From Sarea resinae (lineage: Eukaryota): a stretch of 64,000 nt of DNA. The notes beneath the pieces were generated by a model that saw only the letters and a program-made list of their open reading frames with translations, was not told the origin of the DNA and searched no databases. The DNA is taken from NCBI GenBank assembly GCA_026026165.1, contig JAPEUD010000006.1:372001-436000 (forward strand), written 5' to 3'. Shown piece by piece: positions 31,200 through 47,848 of the stretch (positions are counted from its first letter, which is position 1; each line of letters opens with the position of its first letter). A program made the position numbers and the translations under genes.

Positions 31200-33900
31200 A
31201 CTAATCCTAATGTGCAGAGGAAGCGCTAGCAGACAACGACTATTTCTGCACTAATATCTGCGCTAACCACGCTACAGACATTCTCTTCTGCATTGCTAAC
31301 CCTTATATTAGCGCTGTTAGCATCAAATACTAATTAGTCTCTGCTAGAAGCGTTAGCAGATAAGGTTATACCTAGCAGAATAAGTGCAGAGGCTAAGCTC
31401 TACTACATTATTGCTAAGTTATAGGAGTAGCAAGTAACGCCTTTAACTCTTATAACGTTCTAGCTAGAACATATAAAGGATAATTAAAACTTCTGCTAAG
31501 CTAAGCAAAGGAAAGACCTTATTAGATTAGTCCTTAGATTTAATAATATCAACAATCTTCTGTTAGAAGCAGACAAAGGCCTAGCTGTAGTAATAGACAG
31601 CAGTATTAGCCTTATCTGCAGCGAATTAAACTAGCTACAGAATCGTTGTCAGCTGTTTAGCTAATACAGCAAAGACTTAGACTTTAAGACACTTAATATA
31701 ACTCGCTCTACAGGCAACATCTTAGAGATAGCGCCTATGTTGTCACAACTAATTAGCAGTGCAGCTGAATCGCAGTATGCAGCGAAACATTAGCAGAGGA
31801 CCTATTTAGCAGACGCTAGACGACTTGTTATAACAGCATCTATGTTCTGTCTTAGCTACGCTAAATTGTTAATGAATTGCTTTGCCTGCCTACTAGGATT
31901 ATATCTATAAGACTCTAGGTTAACACAGCGTGCGCTAAGCACGCTCTATAGCCTAGGTCTAGTAGATAGATATCGTATAATAGACATGTAGAAACAGCAG
32001 ATATTAGATTAGAGCAAGGAATGTGTCCCCTAAACGCTACTATTAGCTAGGGCTAACTAAACAAAGGCAGATATCTGCTTAGCCGCGCAGACGTAGGACT
32101 ACACTATTATATATAACAACTTTAAATAGCACGCAAAAACACAGCATTAAACAGTTAGTTATACTAGAACGCTCTACTTATACACTACTAGAAAACTCCT
32201 ACACAGACAATGTTTACTAAGCAGAGGACTAACGCAGGACATGTTCTACTCTAATGTTTGTGCTAATGTAATGACTCTTCTAGAAGCAGACAGAAATCAA
32301 GTCGATAAAACGCAGGCGCAGATATTAACGCATTTAGTTGCTAGTGCTATTTGCACAGCATGTCTAGACGTTGTTAATGCTATATTCGCAGCAGATATTA
32401 ATGCTTTCCTGCAAATGCCAGCTGTTAACGTTCTTCTGCCCTTGCAAATAGAGTATATAACCCTTAGACTAATCACTAAATCTAAGGGCTCTGTAGCAGG
32501 CACATATTAGGTGTTAGATAACATCTTTGCTAGCTAACTAGAGAAGGATACAGTCGACTTTAAAAACAAGTTAGTGTTAGTATTTAGTGACTAGAAAACA
32601 ACAGCGCTAATCTGCTCTTATTAGCTTAAGCGATTAGAGGTAGCAGATATATATAATCGACTTAATTAGATATTATCAGTACCTAGCCTCTTTTACTTGC
32701 GGATAAACCTGCTGGCATTGATTGTTAGATCGCACTACAGCAGACAGAGCAGTCTCAACTAATACTCGACGTTATATTCGCATATAAATTACCTTAGTTG
32801 TCAGAATATACCTGCAGATAAAGCGCTGTTTCACTACTAGTAAGAGCTTGTTCAACATAGCTTTCAGGCTAGAATAGTTGCACTATTTATATCATAACTG
32901 TCTGTTTTATATAGACGACAAAGTAAAGGCTAACTAGATAAGATGCTCTGCAAAATGACTCCTGCAAACTTTCTTGCTTAGGTAGAGAATATCTGCAAAA
33001 CTATCTTCTTTGCTGCTAGCTATTAGGAGTTAGCTTAATATAAGAAGGATATACATAGTAGAGATAGAGACATAGTAGGTGCTAGTCGAAAGCAGAATTA
33101 TAAGCAGCAGCATCTCCTGCATGATTCTAAGTATTTCAATCACATTTGCTTTCTGCACTATATAGAAACATACTTGACCTTAAGGCATGCTATTAAATTC
33201 GCTGATATTAGTTTGCTCTGCCGCGCGATTACCTACAGCTGTCTGTATTTCAGCAGAAGTGGTTCGCATAACTATTTGTAAGAGATAATCTGATTTTAGC
33301 AGCTAATATTAACGCTAACGTGTGATCTATGTCTGTAAGAGGCTATACTTGCAAATAGTCTTATCAGCAACTACAACAAACTAGGTGCCTTTATAGAAGT
33401 CGATTAGATAAACAAGCTGTTAAATCTAGAATTAAAGACTATCTTACAGACTAAGGGCAATTCAACGTTTGATATAACAGCTTTATTTAAATAGTTAGTG
33501 CTGCTAACTAGCTATCTTGCTCTGCTTTGTGCTGAGTTTAAGTTTGTATTTAGCGAGCAGACAAACACTTCTTATACTAACAAATCTGCTGCTGCAGATA
33601 TTAGGAGTCTTGCAGATATCATTGCCTAAGACTCTATAATCCGCTGCAAGGATAGGATGTCTGCATATATAGCTCTAGGATTGTTGCAATTAGGTGTTAT
33701 ACAACTAGCTTAGAAGAGGCTGCCTACGCTTGCTAGCAGATATATAGATCTAGATAAGGAGGGTATTTCTAATATAGACTAACAGATAGTAGAGGCGTTA
33801 GTAGGCCTTAATATAAGTATATCTTAGCGGCTTTATTGTGATTTGTATAATAGCTGACTTTATTGTAGGCACTAGATACCTGATTAGTATAGCAGACAAA
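31200..33900 (+). pseudogene. DUF6589-like (Academ-type DDE) transposase pseudogene; boundaries approximate
   Basis: One frame (that of ORF 32241-32510) reads YNNFK* (32112; YDNFEQ after reversing C>T/G>A), VFSD*KTTALIC (32580; VFGDQKT...R), PSLFYLRIN (32682; PGLFHLRMN), HAIKFADISLL, SGSHNY and FIEVD*INKLLN (33390; D...E..N). No frameshift between these motifs. Confidence 0.75.
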
Positions 33901-34299
33901 CGCACGATTATACTACTTCCTAGTTATATACTAAATCATAATTGCAATTTGATTCTATCTACTATTATATGCCTAACTAGCTAGCTGTCAGCTTAGCTAT
34001 GTCAGACTAACAGCCTATGCAGCGGATAATGTTTAGGATCTTAAGGATATCACTTGCTATACACAACTACCCTGCTCTTAGATCTGTAATGTCTGCTTGT
34101 AAATCAGCTATTAAGTCATTGCTGACAGCGGCTGCAGCAGCAGAAGGTCCTGCAGACGCAGAAGAAGGTGCTGTTACAGCGACAGTATGTCCTGCAGACG
34201 CAGACAAAGCGGCTAGCTAATAAGAAAGACGTTAGCAGGGCTAGGTTTTAGTAAGAGGTGAGTCGCTAGCTGTGTCTTTATCTAGGTCATTATTATTAA

Positions 34300-35440
34300 C
34301 AGCTTCCTTAGTCTTCTGTTGCTAAACAATTCGTCAGCTAACCTAGTCTAATATATATATGCATCGAATATACCTTCTGTAGCCTTTTGCTATTGTCTAA
34401 CGCATTATTCTTACGCTTTTTGCCTTTGTTAAGACGCAAAGAGGTGCAGACAGCCTTCTTAATATGTTAGCTATAGCGGATATTCACTATAACATACCAC
34501 TGCTATAGCAGATATAGCGGATAGACATACTAGAGGAGTATTATTATTATTCGCATTAATCACACACAGTTTTCCAGCCTAGCGACACCCTACGCAACTG
34601 TCTCCTAGCTTAACTATATGCTTCTTAACTTCTTAGCAGTAGACCTTGCAAGGGATGCCTTTTTTAACACATTGTTCGCACTTGTAGGTTAGCTCTATAC
34701 CCTAGTATAGGTCGTTGAATATCAAATCAGCATAGGCATAGGCTTTCTAGCAAGTCTCCTTTAGCCTATTCTAAACAGCGTCTGAACACGTTAGCTAGTC
34801 TAGTTTAGTTAGACGTGCAATAAACTATTGTTTATTATAAAATCAGCATTACGCACAGTTCTCTGCAGCAGCAGATAATTAGGCCGCGGCGGCAGACAGG
34901 CTAGCAGCAGACAGGTTAGCGGCAGACAGGTTAGCAGCAGACAGGTTAGCGGCAGACAGTTAGGCGGCGGCAGACAATTAGGCGATAGCAGCAGACAGCT
35001 TATCTTCGAACAATTTCAAAGCTTTAGCATTGTTATTATCCTCTAAGACAAACCCTAAAGACTAGTCTAACGTATACTCTGCTATCCCTTTACCTTTGTC
35101 CTTTAGCCCTGTATCTAAGTCATCTTTATCTGATGATTTATCTGCTAACCCTTTACCTTTGTCCTTTAGTAGCGCTGTACCTAATTCACCTTTGTTAGAG
35201 AGTTTGTCTGCTGCCGCCCTTTTAGTATATTGTTTAATTTCTGCACGTGGCAGCAGGCGGATTAGGAAGGGATATTCTGACTAATACTTGATTGCAGAGG
35301 CAGCAGACGACTTAGCAGAGGCGGCAGACAAAACAGCAGCAGCAGACAAGACAGCAGCGGCAGCAGATAAGACAGCAGCAGCAGCAGAGACAGCAGCGGC
35401 GGCAGACTCAGCAGCGGCAGCAGACTTAGTCCTAATTAGA
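34300..35440 (-). pseudogene. Third transposon-borne gene relic with a Zn2Cys6-like cluster and low-complexity repeats; boundaries approximate
   Basis: Minus strand 34680-34564 reads CEQC-VKKGIP-C-x17-CVGC-R*AGKL-C. Upstream lie 15-bp tandem repeats (34890-34960), a duplicated KDKGKG-coding segment (~35087, ~35149) and GCA-rich repeats (35300-35430). Confidence 0.55.
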
Positions 35441-35899
35441 AGTCAGTTATTATATCTAATATAATAAAGAAAAGTTTAAGATCAGGTTAGTTAAACAGTT
35501 AAAACTTACATAACTAATGTTAAGGTTTCCTCTCTAATCAGACAAAAGTCATTAGCAGCTGACATACTATAAAGTTGCTAGTAAGAGGTTAGAGTTAGTT
35601 AGAAGTGTCAACTTATACTAGCCTTAAAGCACCTTTAGTACTATTTGCAACGTTCGACAGATATTGCTCTAATACACTGTTCTTAGCGAAGTCATCAGCT
35701 ATAATAATAGCAAGGATAATATAGATATCAGTTATTAATAATTGACAGGCTGTAGCAGAGTTATTAAACGAAAGAGGTGCGATGTTAACAATGTTAATAA
35801 GGTTAACAAGGTGATAAGGTTGATAATATTTGCAGGTCAGCTATATAAAGAAGTGGTTCTTTGTTTGAACAAAGAAATCGCTAGTCAACTATTCACTTA

Positions 35900-38400
35900 A
35901 TTTATTAGGCGTACTCGTTTGCTAGATGCAGAAGTTAATAGCAGGCAGAGGTGAGTATTTATATCTACCTTAGCTAGAGGCTGACGTCTCTTATATAATC
36001 TATTAGGTTTGTCTAACAGAGTGTCAACTTGTAGTATGTGACGCGGATTAATGACAGGTGGCAAATCAGCTAGCTGACTAGATATATCAGATGCAGATAA
36101 TAAGGACAAGTTAGCTACAGCTAGTATTAAGGCCGCGGGTTGCACAGTCAAATCCTCTGCGCATATACAGGCTAACAACGCACTTAATTCAGACTAGCTA
36201 AGATCACTGCTAGCCTATTCTGCATATCTTAGCAACAAACCTACATTATAAATACTAGTCTTCTAAACGTATATCCGCTGTATAACGTCCTCTGATATTG
36301 TATATCCTGCTATAGAGACCTAGGTCATGTCCTTGTACTTTGTCTGCGTCTGCTCTAATATCTACTGCTTAATCTAAACAGCTATATGTTTGTTAGGGTA
36401 GCTAGATCGCGGCGTAATACCTGAGTTCAGCAGTTAAAAGTATAGCTTCCTAGATAAAACTAGCTCTAGGTTGCAGTTCAAACAGCAACGTCTGCGCAGA
36501 ACAGGTTCCTTAGTGTTTTTGTCTGCTAGCTGCTTATTAAACGCCTGCATAAATATTGCCTGCAAGCAGCCTTTCTCCTTGTTTGTAAAATTGTATAGCA
36601 GAAGAGGAAGCTCTACTCGCTGTTTGTATACATCTTTGTGCTTGACTTTCATAGGCTAAGGACCTATTTCAGCTAGTACAGCAATATACAACCTCTCTAG
36701 ACTTAGCTCTTGCATTATCCGCTGTTTAATATCTGCGTTAGCCGCGTTGTCATCTGATAATGCAACAGAGGAGACAGCAGAATCAACACTTATACTGTTA
36801 GAGTCTGCGCTTTTATATGCCTGCTCTTAACTTAATAGACTTAGCTAAGACAAGGAAGTTAATGTCTGCACAGCAGATGTCTGCGTGCTAGATATCTGCG
36901 ATCTTAACTGCTAGCTATTATCACTACCTGCTTGCCTTGCCCTAGTCTGCACTCTAGGACCTTTACACTACTTATTAATAAAGAAAATTGCCTCTCCTTT
37001 CTAACTAGCACCTTGTGCTGCCTGACTAAATCGTTGCTATACTAAGCTTAGAAGGCGATCACAAAAGATGCTAAGATAAACTACCTGCTTAATATCTGCG
37101 ACATCTGCACCCTAGGCAACTGCATCTGAATAGAGCAACACTCTTATTCTTAACTGCAGCTGTAAAAACTCTGCCTATATCTGCTCTTTGTCTTGCTCTG
37201 CAAGGGTAGCGTGGTACACATTAACTGTGTGCATTACTAACTGCGCTAAATATCTGCGGTCCTTTAGCCACTAACAGACCTTGTTGCAGGCTTCTATAAG
37301 CTGCTGTTTACTGTTAATAAATATCGCTGTCTTTAGGATCCGCTGCAGAGTTAGACAGTAACGTCGTTTAGTATAGCTACTATTAGCAGACAGCATAGGC
37401 GTCTTAGATTCTATAGCTAGCGTGGCTGATGCAAGAGATTCTAGCCTAACTGCAGCAGATGTTCTAATGTTTGCAGATATAGTTAGCTAGGACCTAGCTA
37501 TATCTGCAGTGTCCTTAGCACAGCCTTTAATAACAAAGTATAGGCAGTCAAATGACTTCTTATTACTGCAGCAGATATATTCGCAGATAATAGCTAGCTC
37601 TAGTCAATCAATTAAGGTGCAGATCAATTTAACGTCGTTATTAAAGCAAGCAAGCTAGTATACCTCTGCAAAGGTGTTGTTATCTAGTGTTGCAGTGCAA
37701 GCAAACTAGGGCTTGTTTCCTAGAAATCTGCAGAGGATACTAAGCTCAGCATAGGAGCTGCGAAAGAAGGACTAGTTTGAAATTAGATAAACCTTATCTA
37801 GCACTACAAGCGCTATCTGCTCCTGCAATTATATGTCTTTCTATATCCGCTTGAAATTTGTGCTAACTACAAGCTCTAGCGAGATTAGGATGTGTGTATA
37901 TTTGCAATTACAGATATCCTTAAGGAGTTAGTTGTTATTGTTCTAACCTGTTATATAAACAGGCTTTATACCTGTAAGCTCCTTTATCTGCATAGTCTGC
38001 TTATCTCTAATCTTATTTAGCAGAAGAATAACAATAACAATAGCGTTACAGACTAGACATAGAATTGACTGCATAATTATACTCTTGCTAAACAAAGTTT
38101 TAGCAACTAGAAAGAGATCTTTCTTAGTGTATATCAGCTAGCAGAGCGCTTGCAGCTGACCTATCCTTCTGCTATATAGGTATATCGCGCAGATAATTGC
38201 ATTAATCGCTGCAAGCTGTGCCTGTTTATCTGTATAGTAGAGCTCTTAAAGTCTGTCTTACAAGGCCTATATTTGACGCTCTTTATCTGTAGTAAGGTTG
38301 CTGTATGCTATTGCTTCTGCTTACAAACGTTCTTTATCTGCAGAGGGTAGCTGTAGTAGGCAGACATATTTGCCCTAGTTAGAGCGTCTTCTTTAAGGTA
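35900..38400 (-). pseudogene. RecQ-like SF2 helicase pseudogene; boundaries approximate
   Basis: One minus-strand frame reads DLFLVAKTLFSKS (Walker A, ~38104-38081; AKTSFGKS), ILLLNKIRDKQ (motif Ia; PLNKIGDEQ), YTHILISLEL (SPE), VVLDKVYLISN* (DEVH, ~37790), FACTATLD (III), VYHATL, SDAVA*GADVADI (V), *QRFSQAAQG (VI; WQRFGRAARG) and the Zn region GCLQAIF...CCLNCN (ORF 36434-36652, same frame). Confidence 0.88.
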
Positions 38401-38880: not shown

Positions 38881-39150
38881 TCACTCTCTGCTATCGCAAG
38901 CACATCTTGATCATTGTGATCACTGCCACAAGCACCGTCATCTGCGACTCAGAGCATCGTCGCTGGTCGACTCATCAAGTTTCGTTCGGATCTCGCAGGT
39001 CTAGACTGCGGTTCGCTTCTTGCCTGTCTTCGTTCTAAGGTTGCCCGTGTAGAGTCTTGATAATCTTTCATCAACGTCAACGAGCACCCAATTCCACGTT
39101 CTCTTTCATTGCCTGCTTCTCGAGACCTCACCTTACTCCTCGTTGCCATC

Positions 39151-40032
39151 ATGTCGTACCTTCAGAGCCAGCTCGATGCTTTCAAATCCGACCTCACCTC
39201 ATCCTCCTCGAAGATCGCCAACAAGCGCACGCTTGCCGCCGCATCAGGACCCTCCAGAACCACGCCCTCCCCCGCGCCCTCGACCGCCTCAACACCCAGC
39301 AAAAATGACCTCAAACGCAAGCGGCCCGAGGCGCCTGTGATTCCGTTCTCTCAACCTGCAGATACCGGTACCGGCAGACATATCATGACCCAGGTCACCT
39401 ACGCAGTCGAGTACCTCAAATCGAAAGACAAACCGCAGACGCTCAAGGATATATTCCGCTACCTTTCGCTGCACAAGTCCGACGAGCTGAACAGGAACAA
39501 TCTGGGCAAGATCCTACAGCAGCACGATCGCGTGGAGTTTGATCCCGCAGGTGGAGGTGGAGAGGGCGCTTTCAGATTCAGGCCTATCCACAATATCCGC
39601 TCCGAAGACCAACTACTCCGCTTCCTTCAATCGCAGCCTACCGCGCAGGGGCTCTTTGTGCGTGAGCTCAAGGACGGCTGGCCGGGCGCAATTGCGACTA
39701 TTGATGATCTCGAGCGCAGAGGGAAACTACTGGTCATTCGCAACAAGAAAGACGGCGGGGCGAAGATGGTCTGGGCAAACGATCCATCGCTGTCCCAACA
39801 TGTCGACACCGAATTTCAGAACCTCTGGCATAAAATTCCCTTGCCCAAGACGGCGGCCGATTTGATGCAGGAGTTGGAGAAGGCGAACTTGACTCCGACG
39901 AGCAAGAAAGAGGCGGTTATGATACAACCCAAAGAGAAGACCAAGAAGAAGCGGCCAGCAAAGAAGGGTGGGCGCACGACAAATACTCATATGATGGGGG
40001 TTTTGAGAGACTATTCGCATCTGCAGAGATGA
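39151..40032 (+). CDS. TFA2: Transcription initiation factor TFIIE beta subunit
   Basis: Intronless ORF from ATG 39151. Motifs TQVTYAVEYLK, FRPIHNIRSEDQLL, ELKDGWP, EFQNLWHKIPLP and a basic C-terminus RTTNTHM. Confidence 0.92.
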   Translation: MSYLQSQLDAFKSDLTSSSSKIANKRTLAAASGPSRTTPSPAPSTASTPSKNDLKRKRPEAPVIPFSQPADTGTGRHIMTQVTYAVEYLKSKDKPQTLKDIFRYLSLHKSDELNRNNLGKILQQHDRVEFDPAGGGGEGAFRFRPIHNIRSEDQLLRFLQSQPTAQGLFVRELKDGWPGAIATIDDLERRGKLLVIRNKKDGGAKMVWANDPSLSQHVDTEFQNLWHKIPLPKTAADLMQELEKANLTPTSKKEAVMIQPKEKTKKKRPAKKGGRTTNTHMMGVLRDYSHLQR

Positions 40033-40511
40033 AAGATGGGGGAATATGTCGATATATTGAATCTATGGGCGGATTGCGAGGGCTTTGGACGGACGCAGAC
40101 AAGGCCTGCCGATGGCATCGCCACGGCTTTACAGAGTTTCATCAACAGCGGATGGACAAGTTCACCCGATCTCGAGTGGCTTGCACAGAGCAAGCACCGG
40201 CGACACCTTTCCACGCTATTGCTACCACTCCCGGATTACGTCCACACGATGGACATGACGAGGAAAGCAGTTGAAGTGGTTTGCCACTTTTGCAGGGATC
40301 ATGGGCACATAGAACGGCTGACGCCGTTATTCCCAGAATGCAAATCAAGAAGTCCAAAAGGCTCTTTGGTGTTTCTTGAGCTTTTGCAAGATTGCCCTAC
40401 ATGTGAAGCTAGAGTGAATAGAATTCAACGCTACACCATTTGACCCTAGCAAACATGCTATTTCGTGAGGAGAACAATAATAATATACATTTCACTGTGA
40501 ACGAACCCCAG

Positions 40512-41378
40512 CTACACCTCCTCATCCTTTCTAACGGCAAAGAAGTAATTGCCCCATTGCTCGCTGCCCTGGACCTTTTTCCACCCCAAACCAGGCAGAT
40601 ACATGACGCCCATCGCCCTCGGCTGCCCCCATCCAGGCCGTCCCACAAACCAGCCCCGCATCTCATCCTCATTGATGTAATTCCGCCAGTCATGCGTGCC
40701 CCTCGGCACCATCCTGATGACTTCCTCGGCCACTACGACCGTGGTCAGCCAGCTCGTCCACGTGCGCGATATCGTGCTCAGCACCAGCCACCCGCCGGGC
40801 TTCACAAACGGCATACACGATTCCAGGAACGCGGACGGGTGGGCCGTGTGTTCGATGACTTCGAACAGAGAGACGACATCGCACTGGTCCTGTGTCGACT
40901 GCGGCACAGGGAGATCCTCAATGGACGTGTTCAGGTAGTTGAGCTTCTTCTGCGAGAGCAGCGCGGGGTCCTGGCGGAGGTGCGACTTGGCGACCGCTAG
41001 GACTTCGGCGCTCGGGTCGATGCCCGTGACGCTGGCCGTGGAGGGGAGACGCGCGGCGCTTTCCGTGAAGATACCACCGCCGCAGCCGATGTCGAGGTAG
41101 CGGAGCTGTTTGGGCCCGGGTTGCGGGTCGCGCGGTGCGGGCACCGAGGCCTGGCAGGAAGAGATGAAGTCGTGGCGGAGGGGGTTCATGAGATGCAGGA
41201 GGCGGGACGGGCCATGTGGATCCCACCAGCTGGAGGCCAGCGCATTGAAGTGCGCTACTTCTTGCGGGTTCACAGAGGAGGGTCCTGCAGTGTGCGTGGA
41301 GGTGTACCGGATCGTGTGTGGGGAGAGCTTGAGGAGGCGGGGGACGCCGCGGAGGGAGGAGGGGCGGAGAGTTGCCAT
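40512..41378 (-). CDS. COQ3: Ubiquinone biosynthesis O-methyltransferase (UbiG/Coq3)
   Basis: Arg-rich mitochondrial presequence; motifs HFNALASSWWDPHGPSRLLHLMNPLR, LDIGCGGG, FEVIEH, KPGGWLVLSTI and VPRGTHDW. Confidence 0.95.
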   Translation of the reverse strand: MATLRPSSLRGVPRLLKLSPHTIRYTSTHTAGPSSVNPQEVAHFNALASSWWDPHGPSRLLHLMNPLRHDFISSCQASVPAPRDPQPGPKQLRYLDIGCGGGIFTESAARLPSTASVTGIDPSAEVLAVAKSHLRQDPALLSQKKLNYLNTSIEDLPVPQSTQDQCDVVSLFEVIEHTAHPSAFLESCMPFVKPGGWLVLSTISRTWTSWLTTVVVAEEVIRMVPRGTHDWRNYINEDEMRGWFVGRPGWGQPRAMGVMYLPGLGWKKVQGSEQWGNYFFAVRKDEEV

Positions 41379-43421
41379 TGAGAGTAGTGGTAGGGAGTAG
41401 TAGATGGGGCGGGACTTGGTCTACTCAGTAGAGGTGTGGTCTCTATGGAATGTGTAAGCATTGCCCCCGTGAGAAAGCTGGCAGGCTACGGGCTGGGCTG
41501 GATGCTCACAGCAGCTCTCGTCCGCGGATTGTGACTGCCGCTGGTGCATCCGTCGGGCTTTTCCTCCCAGCGTACTTTGTGACTCAGCCCCCTCCCAACG
41601 TCAGAGGACTGATGCGGCAAGAAACGCAGAGCTTGCTAGACTTCTCTCGGTGGAGTGAATAAGGTAGGAGTAGTCATGTTGAACCTTGGTGGACCATGGA
41701 TGGCATTCAATTGAGGTAATCGACATCGGAACAACGAAGATGCGTCCCGAAATGATCTCCCAAAATGATGCTAGCGCCGATCATTGACGACCAAGGGACC
41801 TGGATGTCTTTGTGTCTTCCTGCCCTCCCACCAGCTCTTCGCCGCATTGCGATATGAATATAAATAATGCCCCATTTTACAGAGCTTGGAACAGAATCGA
41901 AACTGTCGATCATCCGTGATCTCGACTCGGGCTGCTCTGCAAGATTGCAGTAGACGGACAACCATGACTAAGCAGCACAGCACTTCCATACTAAGAGCAA
42001 AGGGGCCGATTATGGCACCTCAAGAGGACGCTGTCCTCTTCTGGAATCGTTACTGGCCCCATCATGACGCTCCGTGTCTTGACCAATTCAGACAGGCCTC
42101 CTTGAGACTATTCTCAATGCCGGCTTATCGCTGGCACGGTGCACTGGCTCCTCGATCTCAAGCTCTGTGTTGTTTGGGGAGTCTTAGGTCTTCCAGGCCG
42201 GACTGACCCACGAATGATTCTTATTCATGGCTTCAAGAATATTGTCTGCTATTCTTACTTCCATCTCATGCAAATACGCCTGCCCATTTATCTCTGATCT
42301 TATTTGAAATGGATCTCAGTCTGTCATGATGGTTACATTTCTATTTGGCATTTTATCACAGTGCTTTGGAGCTTTCCCTCTCCGAAAATATTGGTTCTAT
42401 CTTACTGCAATTCTACGGGCCATCCTTACGCCACAACAGGTCCGAAATATCTGTCCGCCCAACCTCAAACAGCAGATTAATGCCAATACCTCAGATAGAG
42501 GCCACCGGACATTCCGGCTTGTTCAATTCGCAGAGACCTTGCGGTGGCCTTCCTCCACCCAGCCTATAGAAACCACCTCATAGCCAGCACTCACGCTAGA
42601 CCACTTTGGACTGGCCGTATTTGGTGTGGTCTCAATCCTCCCATAGACTACGCGTGTTATCACTCGTTCCCTCCAAATCGGACGCTGCCATCACGACGCG
42701 TATAGTCACTCGTGCTTTCCCAGGACAAAATTCGGCCATCATGCTAGTCGAAAGCTGGCGAGTGTGCTCGTGGTTTACGAATCAGCCTTCTGGCCTGGAT
42801 TGGTTGCTCCTGCTGAGTAGCGGTGCGCCGACTATCTATCCAAACCTTGTACAGCCACTCTCAGTAGGTACTCGCTCGTGCTTTCCCTACACGAGCTTGA
42901 GATGATGTTCGAATCCCGGCCGACAACGTCTACAAACTCTTCTTCTACACCCCTTCCGGAACTTAATCCTCCCATGCCGTTGCGCTACTATAACCGCAAT
43001 GGCGATCACCCCTCCCAAAAGAATCAGCCCTACCCGATACAGAATTATATCCAGCTCTTCCTTTCGCGACGACTTCCTCATCGCTTCCCAATGTGGTCAA
43101 GAACAATCCCATACCAGCAGCCCTCGCGCCTACTTAATCCCCCCTCCGCCAGCGGTCTTCGCCCCTTCCTCTCCATCCCTCGTATTTTCCCCACTGTCCG
43201 CACGTCTTCATACGTATCGCACAGAAGATAACTATATACTCGATAGCTTGAGCCTCCACCCCAAGCCTACCAGCTTCTACTCCTTCTAGAGCCTTCAAGC
43301 CGACAGAGCACGCTTTCGAGCAGTAGCCGTCACCTACTCCTAATCGGTGTATCGAAGAAGCTGCCTTTTGGCTCTTCTTCCCCTATTCCTTCTTCTTCTG
43401 TAGAGCTGCCTGCCTACTCGT

Positions 43422-43591
43422 GAGAGTGCCACTTTACGCCTCTCCACCCACAAAAGGCCACTCAACGCCTTTCTTCGCACAAGGGCCACTTTACGCCCTT
43501 CGAAGCCAAAGGCCACTTTTACGCCTTTACCTCGACAAAAACCCCCCAGGGCCACTTCACGCCCTTCCTTCAAAGGCCACTTTACGCCTTT
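43422..43591 (+). repeat. Array of six short stem-loops with a conserved CACTYHAC loop
   Basis: Units start at 43422, 43453, 43481, 43508, 43548 and 43572. Each has a 5-7-bp stem around an 8-9-nt loop, and the spacers differ in sequence. Confidence 0.85.
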
Positions 43592-43611
43592 CAGTAGCAG
43601 CAGTCGCGATC

Positions 43612-44381
43612 ATGTCTGGACGTCGCTCCCTCTCCACTCGTTCCTCCGCCGCTCGCACCACGGCCGCTACTTCGGTCGCGAGTGCGGCGACCACCACTCC
43701 TCCCAAAATTCTAGCCGGCGGCTCGCACTCTTCTCCTGCGCCGTCGGATCAGATGAGTGAACGAGAGAGGCGGTGCCTGAAACGATCCGAGGATCGCTTT
43801 CTTGGGCGGACGCGAAATTCGAAAGGAAAACGGTTTAGAATTGGTATGTTTTTTTCTTCTTCTACTATCTTTTACGACTTTCTCCTTATTCTGCCATTTC
43901 ATTTTTATCCTTTGCAAAATCCTACTCCATTTGACACTTTTCGTTGCCTTATCTTGTCTCTCGTCGTTCAACATGCATAGAAATGGCTTCTAAAACACAC
44001 TCCAGTATTCAAAAGTCCGCCGCCACGCCTCATCTCCCCCGGAGTCGATTTGCACGCCCGATGGCCGGCGTATCAAAGTTGGTAAGTCTTCGTTTATTTC
44101 AGCATCACTTTCGAATCCACTAACACGACGGTTTGAAAAAGTCTTCACACAGAACGGGGTCCGCCTCCCGCCCCACCCTCACCCACGGTGGCAGCAGCGG
44201 GACCAAGGCCGGCCAACAAAACCGTCGTGAACGACCTCCTCCCCCCACCACTCCTACATACACACACACCGACCCGGCCTCCGCGGGGCCGGGTACGGGA
44301 AAACGGGGGCGGGGAAAGATACGCGGCTCGGTAGCGACGGGGAGACCTGAGCGTTTGTGCGGTTTGAGATCTTTGGTGTAG
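43612..44381 (+). CDS. Putative orphan basic (R/S/T/P-rich) protein, ~190 aa, 3 exons (43612-43843, 43981-44081, 44142-44381)
   Basis: Donors GTATGT and GTAAGT, a CTAAC branch site and AG acceptors join in frame. No recognisable domain, so it could be non-coding. Confidence 0.35.
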
Positions 44382-45049
44382 GGGGCGCAAAGGGGTTTTG
44401 CGATCGGTAAGTGTTTTCCTTCTCTCGATCTTTCTATTGCGTGCAAGTCGGCTGATGAAGTTTTGGGTCTCTTGAGCAGAGAATCTTCAATCTGGGATTC
44501 TCTGCATCGAGGCATTTCTCCGGCCGGTGACAACATGGGTTTTGAGGCGCGAGGGTGCTAGTGGACTTTTAGATATCCTGTAAGTCTTTCCGTCTCTCGT
44601 CTCTGTACGCGCGCTCTTTTTTCTCGTCGTGAGAGTATGCGCTGATCATTCTTTGTCCTGCGCACAGAATCTTCAACCTGGGATCCAGGTTAGCAAATAG
44701 CGATGGAAGAGCGAAGAGCCAAGAGCGAAACTTGTGCGGTTTTCTAGAGTTGGGGGAATAAAGGTTATACGCGGTCCTGTCCTGTCCTGTCATGTCATGT
44801 CATGTCTGTCTGCTTGTTTTTTGGGGTTTTTACTTTGTTGGTGGATGGGCGATTACGATGTTAGCATCATTGATTTTGTCTTCTCTTCTGCTACAGCTCT
44901 TCTCCAGATCGAAATAGAATCGCTATCGCAATCGCAATCGCAATACTAGCATTGTCAACACATCACTTCCCATCATATCATTTACTTACTTTACTCTCGG
45001 AGCCGCGTGATAGAACAAGAAAACAAGAAAACAAAGAAAACAAAAAAAG

Positions 45050-45880
45050 GGAAAAAAGAATAGGGGTGCTAGGGCTTAGGTATTAGGTAGGATATATACC
45101 TAGAGGTAGAGGAATATATATGTATATATATATATATATATATGAGGTAGTGTGTAGGTTGTGTTATAGTATAGTATAGTATAGCATTGTATACTAGGTA
45201 GGTAGGTAGGTAGTATAATGCTCTAGAGGTAGTTTAATACTCTAGAGGTACTGTATAGAAAGTAGGGGAGCAGAAGAGAGTAGGTAGAGGTAAGAGAGTT
45301 AATGAGTAGAAGCAGAAGCAGAAGCAGAGAGAGGTAAAGAGGCTAGAACGCGAGGTAGAGAGCAAGGTAAAAGTCAAGAGAGTAGAGAGAGTAGAGAGAG
45401 AGAGAGAGAGAGAGTGCAAGGTAGAGTAGGTAGAGAAAGGAGATATAATAAGTCTTTCTAGTCTAGCACTACCTTATACACACACATATATATACACTGT
45501 ATATATATACAATATAGAGAAGGAGAGATAGAGAGAGAGAGAGAGAGAGATTACTATTTCTATATAGATATCTAAACCCTAAAGGTACTTTAGATAGGTA
45601 GGAGTGTAGACCTAGAGAGGGTGAAAGGGCGTTAGAGAGAGAGGTAGAGAGCTTCAAAGGGGCGAGGGAGGTAGAGAAAGATAAGTCTCTCTGGTCTAGT
45701 CTAGTCTAGCACTGTATTATATATATATATATACTGTACTCATACACATACACATACACATACACAAACGCACACAGAGAGATAGCCAAGCTAAGTAAGG
45801 TCGAGCAAGACGAGATAAGTCTCTCTTATCTAGCCTAGCACTGTATACACACACTTCACAGAGAGAGAGAGAGAGAGATG
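45050..45880. repeat. Compound microsatellite block ((TA)n, (AG)n, (TAGG)n, (CATACA)n) with three degenerate ATAAGTCT...CTAGCACT modules
   Basis: Read directly; modules at ~45448, 45681 and 45815. Confidence 0.8.
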
Positions 45881-46141
45881 TTGCTATTATACATGGATAA
45901 AAGAAGACGGATGATGGTCGTCTGGGCACGTCTTCTATAGAGAGGGTAGATAGACATGCGATCAATTCGCTCCGGATGCAAGAAGAAAAAGGGAATCTCG
46001 GTGTTTGTTCCGACGAGACGGCCCGTGGACCTTGTTTCCATACAATTCCAAGCAGACAAAACACACAAACGAATGCCATCAATCGTAACAAAAACCACCA
46101 CAGTCCAACAGCTTCGGCGGCAAAAGACCTTCCCAGACACA

Positions 46142-46840
46142 TCAAAGCATGGTGAATCCTCGGCTCTGGTGCTTCAGGCCCTTGAACGTGCTCTTCCGCT
46201 CGCCGACCCCGAGCTCCATTCCCCGGGCCTCGAACTCGTCATGCACCTCCGCTCTCCTGGGCTCGGGCTGGTGCGTGGCTTCGTACGGTGGTGGCATGGG
46301 CATCGGCGGCGGCAGCGCCGGCAGTTTCTCGCCCTGTTTCTCGCTCGCCTTGGCGGTTCGATCGGCCGTCACCGTCGTCGTGTTGCCGTTTCCGTCGGGC
46401 GGCGTGGCGTACCATCCTTTATGCGTCGTGCTGGTCATGTTCTTGGTCGGGCCTCCTCGTGGTGATGATGATGTTGTTGCTGTCGACGCTTGGAGCTGGG
46501 CTGCGCGCCGGGCGTTGGTGGCGCGGATCCGCTCGCGCCGTCGGTAGAGGAAGTAGCCCGCTGTCATGAGCAGGAGCACGACGACGAAGACGGGGATCAG
46601 GATGACGGCGAAGGAGTGCGATGGCATGTGTGAAGAGGACGACGAGGAAAAGGGGCCGTCGGAGCTTGTCTGCGCGCTTTTGGCGCTGTCGGTCGGCGTG
46701 GAGCGCTGCAAGAGAGAGGTGGCATGTCTGATGCTCTGGGTGGAGCGTCGTAGGAGAGAAGGGACTGTGTTTTTGATCTTCTGGGCCGGGGTGAGAAGGA
46801 TGAGCGAGGCAGCTACTGGAGATGGGAGTGTTGGTGCCAT
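46142..46840 (-). CDS. Single-pass membrane protein with a cytoplasmic PPPY motif
   Basis: 232-aa ORF with an S/T-rich N-region, hydrophobic helix FAVILIPVFVVVLLLMTAGYFLY followed by RRRER, and later PPPMPMPPPYE. Confidence 0.7.
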   Translation of the reverse strand: MAPTLPSPVAASLILLTPAQKIKNTVPSLLRRSTQSIRHATSLLQRSTPTDSAKSAQTSSDGPFSSSSSSHMPSHSFAVILIPVFVVVLLLMTAGYFLYRRRERIRATNARRAAQLQASTATTSSSPRGGPTKNMTSTTHKGWYATPPDGNGNTTTVTADRTAKASEKQGEKLPALPPPMPMPPPYEATHQPEPRRAEVHDEFEARGMELGVGERKSTFKGLKHQSRGFTML

Positions 46841-47777
46841 TTTTGAATAACTCGTGTTTGTTTCCTGAGGTTCGTTTCTGGGGTGAGAGGCTGATGTTGT
46901 TTTGAGGGCTGTTTGATTGGTATCAAGGGTGACAAAAGGTCTGTTGAAACTAAGGATTGGATGTCGTTGTCTTTCGAGTGAATGCTGTTTGCCCAGGAGA
47001 TGATACTCGAGTGAATGGGATTATGCTGCCAGCAGCGACGGACGGATGGACGATGATAAAATGAGACGAGGCAAGGCTCGCAGACAGACAAGACGTGCCG
47101 GCACGTAATGTTCAAGACGGCCGATCAAAGGAGAGACGGATCCGACTCGAGATACATGGGACCGAGAACGGAAAGAATGTGGTATTCTCGATGCTTTGAT
47201 TCTTTGCAGACCAGCAGCGAGTGACTCGGTCAGGCAAGGTGAGGTGAGGTGGGAGAGAAAGAGTGTGGTGGAGGTAGATGATCGGATGAGTGCGTGAAAG
47301 GTTGAGATGAGGTGAAGAAGGAGAGGCAGGAGAAGAAGTGGGATCAGACTACGGAGTACGACGATGACTGGACGGTCGGCATGCTCGCCAACGACCTCGG
47401 AGCTGCAGTGAAGATCATCAGAGGGGGAACAGACGGTTCAGCGGGTGCGACGCGTCGAGGTCGCAGCAGGGCCACGATCAATGGATGCAAACAGTCTGCA
47501 AACAGTGTGCAAACAGTCTGCGTCTTAGGGGTGCACTAGACTGTCCTCGCTCTTCGCCCCGGAGACGTGCCGGAGTCATGTCAGGGACACACCAGGACAT
47601 CTCGACACGTCCCTCTCCGCACTGCTCGCCGGCGTCATCTCGCAGCACGGCAGAGGAGCGAGGACCAGAAGAGGAGGTATCGGCACCGCTTGACTTCATC
47701 GTCGGGTTTGGGCAGAGGTTGGGGAAATTGCATGAAACAAGGGTGAAGGCGCAAAGGTGTCAAGGAGTCGACATACG

Positions 47778-47848
47778 AAGTACAAGTACAAGTACAAGTA
47801 CAAGTACAAGTACAAGTACAAGTACAAGTACAAGTACAAGTACAAGTA
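47778..47848. repeat. (AAGTAC)~12 microsatellite
   Basis: Perfect hexanucleotide run. Confidence 0.95.

Follow-up and report, generated by a model that had tools for sequence, protein, structure and literature searches.

Within a 64,000-nt stretch of the genome of the fungus Sarea resinae (contig JAPEUD010000006.1, positions 372,001 to 436,000; hereafter, the window), six hairpin units are arranged in tandem on the same strand (+) at 43422-43591, upstream of a putative start codon (ATG 43612). The array is real, constrained, found at one locus and apparently undescribed. As for its function, which is something that we infer, our preferred reading is that the six units make up an RNA hairpin array in a 5' leader, where they would bind a sequence-specific protein and control translation. 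Judging from the sequence, we give this reading a probability of around 40%.

All units follow the same design: a stem of 5-7 bp carries a loop of 8-9 nt with the form CACT..AC, and the core reads GGCCACTTTACGCC. Unit 1 (43422-43444, +) is GAGAG(T)GC-CACTTTAC-GCCTCTC, with a 7 bp stem, one bulged T and a dG of -8.7 kcal/mol. It is followed by unit 2 (43453-43472, +), AAAGGC-CACTCAAC-GCCTTT, with a dG of -6.4, and by unit 3 (43481-43500, +), AAGGGC-CACTTTAC-GCCCTT, where a compensatory change from A-T to G-C goes with a dG of -8.7. Unit 4 (43508-43528, +) is AAAGGC-CACTTTTAC-GCCTTT, and its loop is 9 nt long owing to an extra T (dG -5.6). Unit 5 (43548-43565, +) is AGGGC-CACTTCAC-GCCCT, with a stem of 5 bp and, again, a compensatory G-C (dG -7.8), while unit 6 (43572-43591, +) is AAAGGC-CACTTTAC-GCCTTT (dG -6.3) and ends 20 nt upstream of ATG 43612. 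The units are 18-23 nt long and the gaps between them measure 8, 8, 7, 19 and 6 nt; relative to ATG 43612, the array extends from -190 to -21. CACT and AC are kept in the loops of all six units, and three of them (units 1, 3 and 6) share the loop CACTTTAC. The sequence-only reading that preceded this analysis had described six units with a conserved loop, the last one 20 nt before the ATG, and every detail that we checked was accurate.

Tandem Repeats Finder reports the array as a repeat with a period of 28 nt, 3.6 copies and 75% matches, a periodicity that points to a probable origin of the array by duplication. Duplication of a block of three units (units 1 to 3 giving rise to units 4 to 6) was tested by alignment, and the spacer scores favour no offset. 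A repeat encoding a peptide was also considered and discarded because the unit-to-unit spacings (29, 28, 27, 39 and 25 nt) are not, as a set, multiples of three.

The array exceeds what chance would produce, and it is unique within the window. When up to 2 mismatches are allowed, the core GGCCACTTTACGCC has five matches, all of them in the array and on the + strand; 0.30 are expected, and none of 100 shuffles reached five. The remaining unit escapes this count by a one-base insertion. A search of both strands of the 64 kb for CACT..AC loops on stems of 4 bp or more found no hairpin beyond these units. A covariance model was then trained on units 2, 3, 5 and 6 and run without filters over all 64 kb. 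Its own four units scored 27.2-37.6 bits (35.0 for unit 2), and the two units outside the training set were recovered with 22.2 bits (unit 4) and 18.1 bits (unit 1); the model treats the extra loop base of the former and the bulge of the latter as insertions. The next-best match in the 64-kb window had 11.7 bits (E 0.69). A search of this kind had been proposed in the sequence-only reading and, for its window part, the left-out units come back and nothing comparable exists in the rest of the 64 kb.

A DNA contig of the probable source run spans the array with zero differences, at a depth of 334.9 compared with 353.7-359.7 in neighbouring contigs. Single-copy depth indicates, at the level of 31-letter words, that the array is not a dispersed high-copy element. 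Two further DNA runs of the same study, compared with positions 39000-45000, yielded short pieces that match the neighbouring coding genes poorly, and left the array uncovered.

In the stems, within-strand pairing appears to be under selection. In a model-based alignment of the six units, fitted to the structure and made of paralogues at a single locus, standard pairs occupy 35 of the 36 stem cells, both sides are changed in two of the six stem pairs (3 cells), and the inner five pairs show no one-sided change. Shuffling the 3' partners gave an equally good result in 5 cases out of 500, and sliding them by 1-3 columns made pairing fall to 19-64%. The compensatory changes noted beforehand from the letters are borne out, as all three inner-stem changes are two-sided in this comparison among paralogous units of one locus. 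The same reading had warned that units 3 and 5 might be one duplicated variant, leaving little independent covariation. This caveat holds: the A-T to G-C changes in both units may go back to a single ancestral event, so that two or three independent compensatory changes remain, with unit 1 contributing a further one.

A second line of evidence comes from the contrast between units and spacers. Mean pairwise identity is 0.83 among the six units and 0.39 among the five spacers, the latter indistinguishable from shuffled spacers (0.38, sd 0.02); the earlier description of the spacers as unrelated was therefore correct. Units that are 83% alike amid spacers at the shuffled level point to a constraint on the hairpin, and plain tandem homology is insufficient to explain them. 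Since duplication, what has been retained is the hairpin and not the period. A plain minisatellite was rejected on the same figures despite the 28-nt period.

Each unit, taken alone, folds into the hairpin that had been proposed for it, with an RNA dG of -5.6 to -8.7 kcal/mol that was equalled by 0-6 of 200 shuffles. As DNA, the same hairpins have energies of -3.3 to -4.6 kcal/mol. A 241-nt segment has a z score of -4.55 against shuffles on the + strand and -2.16 on the - strand, a difference to which we give little weight. The same six palindromes form on the - strand and in DNA; furthermore, every stem pair is Watson-Crick, and the lack of G-U pairs leaves no marker of the transcribed strand.

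Complementarity of the flanks does not come with the core. In the window, five of the six units have a flank stem of at least 5 bp, and the sixth has one of 7 bp with one bulge. By comparison, among the matches listed in a metagenome search, such stems accompany 3 of 366 core occurrences, at 115 unrelated loci chosen for two adjacent cores. Their rarity around the core in unrelated loci argues that flank complementarity is no by-product of the core. The metagenome scan for two adjacent cores returned at least 116 stretches and, among those inspected, no relatives: they are unrelated tandem repeats with flank stems of 2-3 bp. Bacterial and archaeal genomes searched with the 20-letter hairpin gave four single matches, about four being expected by chance. 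In viral contigs, the hairpin had no match and the two-core pattern was present at two loci, with no more than 10.1 bits under the covariance model.

The region upstream of the array has features that would fit a transcribed leader. A pyrimidine-rich block (43360-43402, +; 83-90% C+T) ends 20 nt before unit 1, and no ATG occurs in the 517 nt of 43094-43611 (+), where 4.4 are expected (P 0.009 by shuffling). Further upstream, the + strand has a CCAAT (43088), an earlier CT block (43120-43195) and a TATATA (43233). Start sites of Aspergillus nidulans are described as surrounded by a sense strand rich in pyrimidines (-50 to +25) and preceded by TATA boxes at a distance of 30-45 nt, and the 5'UTRs have a median of 93 nt, 95% of them lying within 15-434 nt (PMC4046813). 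By analogy, base composition would place a start site near the block at 43360-43402. Judging from the CT block and the absence of ATG, the array as a whole may well belong to the leader. However, 5'UTR medians in Aspergillus are short (49-135 nt in A. fumigatus, depending on the filter; PMC12810187), and a start site typical of these species would fall inside the array.

The ATG at 43612 opens a probable gene on the + strand. Exon 1 (43612-43843) begins with an ATG that has an A at -3, and GTATGT follows it directly. Exon 2 (43981-44081) lies across a 137-nt GT..AG intron over which the frame stays open, and exon 3 (44142-44381), preceded by an intron of 60 nt whose branch site is ACTAAC, ends with the stop TAG. 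In this model, introns are GT..AG and the first AG after each branch region was taken. The three exons encode 190 aa, with the frame open throughout. With a pI of about 12 for each exon, the product is highly basic; R, S and T are abundant (13 R in the 77 residues of exon 1), and it looks disordered. It has no evident relatives: exon 1 has no Pfam match, none of 692 candidates was a longer homologue at E 0.01 or better, and an atlas search found no look-alike. A comparison with 1.84 billion representatives yielded only two weak, multi-stretch matches (E 1.3e-4 and 6.9e-4), which are taken to be compositional. The in-frame codon score is weakly positive at 0.047; control genes in the window range from 0.05 to 0.21 and non-genic frames nearby from -0.06 to 0.00. 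On this basis the ORF may be considered a lineage-restricted gene, with a coding status that is probable, not secure. Its orphan status and weak codon signal make the regulated product itself uncertain.

Past the stop codon of the orphan ORF, two further segments at 44407-44680 (+) resemble introns: both have GTAAGT, a GCTGAT branch and CAG, and an almost identical sequence of 20 nt (AGAATCTTCAAYCTGGGAT) comes after each. The duplication is local, and it would mean introns in the 3'UTR or alternative exons.

The array sits in 4.7 kb that contain no conserved genes, between a COQ3-like methyltransferase gene (40512-41420, -) and a Psg1-like gene (46142-47020, -); a TFIIE-beta gene (39064-40032, +) lies beyond the former. 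Other genes of the window encode Mlp1/TPR, a Brr2-type helicase, a nucleotide-sugar transporter, a P450 and a serine carboxypeptidase. These ordinary housekeeping genes, the GTAAGT/GTATGT introns and an Aspergillus-type snoRNA indicate a filamentous ascomycete; the snoRNA, described below, would put the window in or near the Aspergillaceae. The distance from the start of the COQ3-like gene to the array (41420-43400, approximately 2.2 kb) is unusually long, and neither of its strands has an ORF matching Pfam. Simple sequence, with AT, AG and TACACA runs together with AGGTAG-type repeats, occupies about 1 kb (44950-45900) of the interval from the orphan gene to the Psg1-like gene; the contig of the probable source run appears to end there. 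Other repeats are also present in the window. An AT-rich block at 32000-38000 (GC 0.37-0.41, about 0.5 elsewhere), perhaps a repeat in decay or a region affected by RIP, contains two minisatellites, one at 34867-34991 (15-nt unit GCGGCAGACAGGTTA, 5.3 copies) and another at 35294-35425 (39-nt unit, 3.2 copies). At 47778-47848 there is a perfect AAGTAC hexamer microsatellite (11.8 copies) in which all frames on both strands are open as dipeptide repeats.

How could such an array work? Under our preferred reading, it would be carried on a + strand mRNA whose translation begins at 43612, and each hairpin would display the loop CACU(Y2-3)AC on a stem of 5-7 bp closed by G-C pairs. Together, the six hairpins would form a multivalent platform for one sequence-specific RNA-binding protein. 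By covering the leader from the vicinity of the cap to 20 nt before the AUG, the protein would block loading or scanning of the 43S complex, and the array would behave as a translational off-switch whose strength depends on the number of occupied sites. Proteins bound to cognate 5'UTR sites are described as translational repressors (PMC1635260). Control of this type is established for other RNA-protein pairs, IRE/IRP among them. Localisation or stabilisation of the mRNA is a less likely output of the same binding. Transcription of the array, its origin on the + strand, protein binding and translational output are all steps that we infer.

Invariance of the loop argues for something that reads it, hence the preference for a sequence-specific RNA-binding protein. 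Pairing within a strand is favoured over a double-stranded site by the two-sided changes, the invariant and asymmetric centre, the varying arm distance and the single orientation of the units. Unit 4 illustrates the point: a loop can accommodate its extra base, which a double-stranded site made of two fixed halves would not tolerate. For a nuclear fungal locus, an mRNA leader would be the most ordinary of the single-stranded readings, and the gene signals (a start codon in good context, GT..AG introns and a 190-codon frame) are on the + strand. The step from a selected hairpin to a multivalent element for translational control is plausible, and the array's location behind a CT block, the lack of ATG in the putative leader and the + strand introns fit it.

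The main rival reading, which we hold to be less likely, treats the units as sites in double-stranded DNA: one transcription factor would have a homotypic cluster of six such sites in the orphan gene's proximal promoter. What it recognises would be the 14-bp core, which is asymmetric, with the palindromic flanks serving as dimer half-sites or else a legacy of the ancestral unit. Homotypic site clusters with irregular spacing of 25-39 bp are common in fungal promoters; conserved sites amid unrelated spacers are also the pattern expected of binding sites, and Watson-Crick stems lacking G-U suit DNA as well as RNA. With 5'UTR medians of 49-135 nt, some of the interval from -190 to -21 would be promoter territory. 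The details of the stems fit less well: independent half-sites need no joint change, yet both sides have changed in three of three inner-stem cases, and in unit 4 the arms are spaced differently by one base pair. Dimer sites of the Zn2Cys6 type have CGG/CCG triplets in inverted, everted or direct orientation, separated by a fixed distance with a free centre. The array was rejected as a set of such sites on the grounds that it has no CGG/CCG, its centre is invariant and its arm distance is 8 or 9; a most conserved part that is an asymmetric centre is the reverse of that architecture. Moreover, the motif precedes no other gene within 64 kb, string searches of papers with the motif as DNA, RNA and complement gave primers and siRNAs only, and no fungal transcription-factor motif that matches the array is known to us.

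Other readings keep the structure and dispense with a protein platform on the + strand; we consider them unlikely as a group. The hairpins might slow scanning by themselves or form a brake that responds to temperature or depends on a helicase. Alternatively, they might belong to a divergent or antisense transcript of the - strand, with loops reading GUAAAGUG, or be extruded, as single-stranded DNA or cruciforms, in a melted promoter. What makes these variants attractive is that the six hairpins form equally on the - strand and in DNA, and that compensatory change supports pairing and not a given strand or molecule. For each variant there is an obstacle. Single hairpins of -5.6 to -8.7 kcal/mol are weak impediments to scanning, and a structure-only brake leaves the CACT..AC loop, invariant in six of six units, unexplained; it does have a counterpart in the multi-hairpins near start codons predicted in Aspergillus 5'UTRs, for which no protein partner is known (PMC2467506). 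DNA hairpins of -3.3 to -4.6 kcal/mol are unlikely to extrude, and the intron signals and the ORF speak against a - strand transcript. Somewhat less likely still is that the array has no function, and that a decaying minisatellite with a palindromic unit by chance, or a palindrome inserted repeatedly, lies beside a spurious ORF. The 28-nt period (3.6 copies, 75% matches), the surrounding 4.7 kb with many simple repeats and no conserved gene, and an ORF that has no relatives would all fit. Neutral decay, however, should strike core and spacers alike, which is not what the 83% identity of the units and the shuffled-level identity of the spacers indicate, and the stem changes are compensatory; a dispersed high-copy element, as one form of this explanation, is at odds with single-copy depth in 31-letter words.

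To return to the preferred reading, an RNA operator array in the leader, an attractive speculation, to which we assign a low probability, concerns the identity of the ligand. The array and the gene might constitute a self-contained RNA switch, of a type so far not described for fungi, in which the arginine-rich, relative-less 190-aa product (pI ~12) would bind the six CACU(Y2-3)AC hairpins of its own leader and set its own translation, in a manner reminiscent of phage lambda N binding to boxB and of HIV Tat binding to TAR. Alternatively, the ligand might be a dedicated fungal RNA-binding protein, and the hairpin would then serve as its operator in a small regulon specific to the lineage, with this locus as one member. 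We know of no fungal RNA-binding protein with specificity for a CACU(Y2-3)AC loop, and literature searches found none.

Few hairpin operators with sequence specificity are known from eukaryotic 5' leaders, the textbook case being the iron-responsive element (IRE). To our knowledge, no natural six-fold array with a single loop motif is known in fungi, and searches of Rfam and the literature for such an array found none. Term searches within the text of two surveys of fungal structured RNAs found no tandem or repeated hairpin motif (PMC5640933, PMC8216456). If the array is transcribed and bound, it would represent a new RNA-protein recognition pair in filamentous fungi and a natural case of graded, multivalent translational control, and it would offer a compact orthogonal operator for fungal synthetic biology. 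Even as a group of DNA sites, it would reveal the motif that some as yet unassigned transcription factor recognises; if conservation is lacking, it will be a curiosity next to a young gene.

The array was also compared with known systems. At gathering thresholds, Rfam 15 placed no family on the array and matched only one element in the whole window, the Aspergillus-type C/D-box snoRNA Afu_190 (RF01498; 63794-63889, +; full length, 81.3 bits); over 43200-44800, with E up to 10, it gave two chance-level matches far below thresholds. The sequence-only reading, which recognised no known family, is in agreement with this result. Candidates rejected from the sequence include intronic snoRNAs and, by comparison of motifs only, engineered MS2, PP7 or boxB arrays, HUH or Helitron hairpins, and tRNA A/B boxes. 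CRISPR arrays have repeats of about 23-50 nt, similar near-uniform spacers and a prokaryotic host with cas genes. Here, the units measure 18-23 nt and the gaps 6-19 nt, and the window contains a fungal snoRNA and spliceosomal introns of the GTAAGT/GTATGT type; a CRISPR array is therefore out, as had been argued beforehand from the short units and the eukaryotic host. The recognition element of Vts1/Smaug, a CNGG(N) loop on a short stem, was also discarded, as CNGG is present in none of the loops.

The IRE/IRP system resembles the array in having a short 5'-leader hairpin with a sequence-specific loop, and in the proposed block of ribosome loading. However, the IRE has a CAGUGN loop with a bulged C five pairs below and is found as a single copy in 5'UTRs, whereas the array has a CACU(Y2-3)AC loop, no conserved bulge and six copies. 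An IRE was rejected because none of the loops (CACTTTAC, CACTCAAC, CACTTCAC and CACTTTTAC) is CAGUGN and the sole bulge is the T of unit 1; the Rfam search, which includes the IRE, gave no match either. Arrays of the Gal4 UAS type also place several partly palindromic sites, irregularly spaced, in around 170 bp upstream of a gene. Those sites have fixed outer triplets around a free centre and can face either way; in the array, in contrast, it is the asymmetric centre that is fixed, with outer pairs that co-vary and arms whose spacing changes by one base. Serial short hairpins with one loop motif and multivalent binding of one protein are likewise found in bacterial arrays of the CsrB/RsmZ type, which are non-coding sponge RNAs with GGA loops; the array lies in a putative mRNA leader and does not resemble them in sequence. 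Compensatory change that preserves base pairing, one of the marks of cis-regulatory RNA hairpins in 5'UTRs, is observed here among paralogous units aligned to fit the structure. The nearest published description that we found is a class of groups of short hairpins near start codons, predicted in the 5'UTRs of six Aspergillus genomes (McGuire and Galagan 2008, PMC2467506). As far as the consulted part of that report goes, the class is defined by shape, consists mostly of two or three hairpins and has no common loop sequence described, whereas the array in S. resinae brings together six hairpins with one loop and stem sequence.
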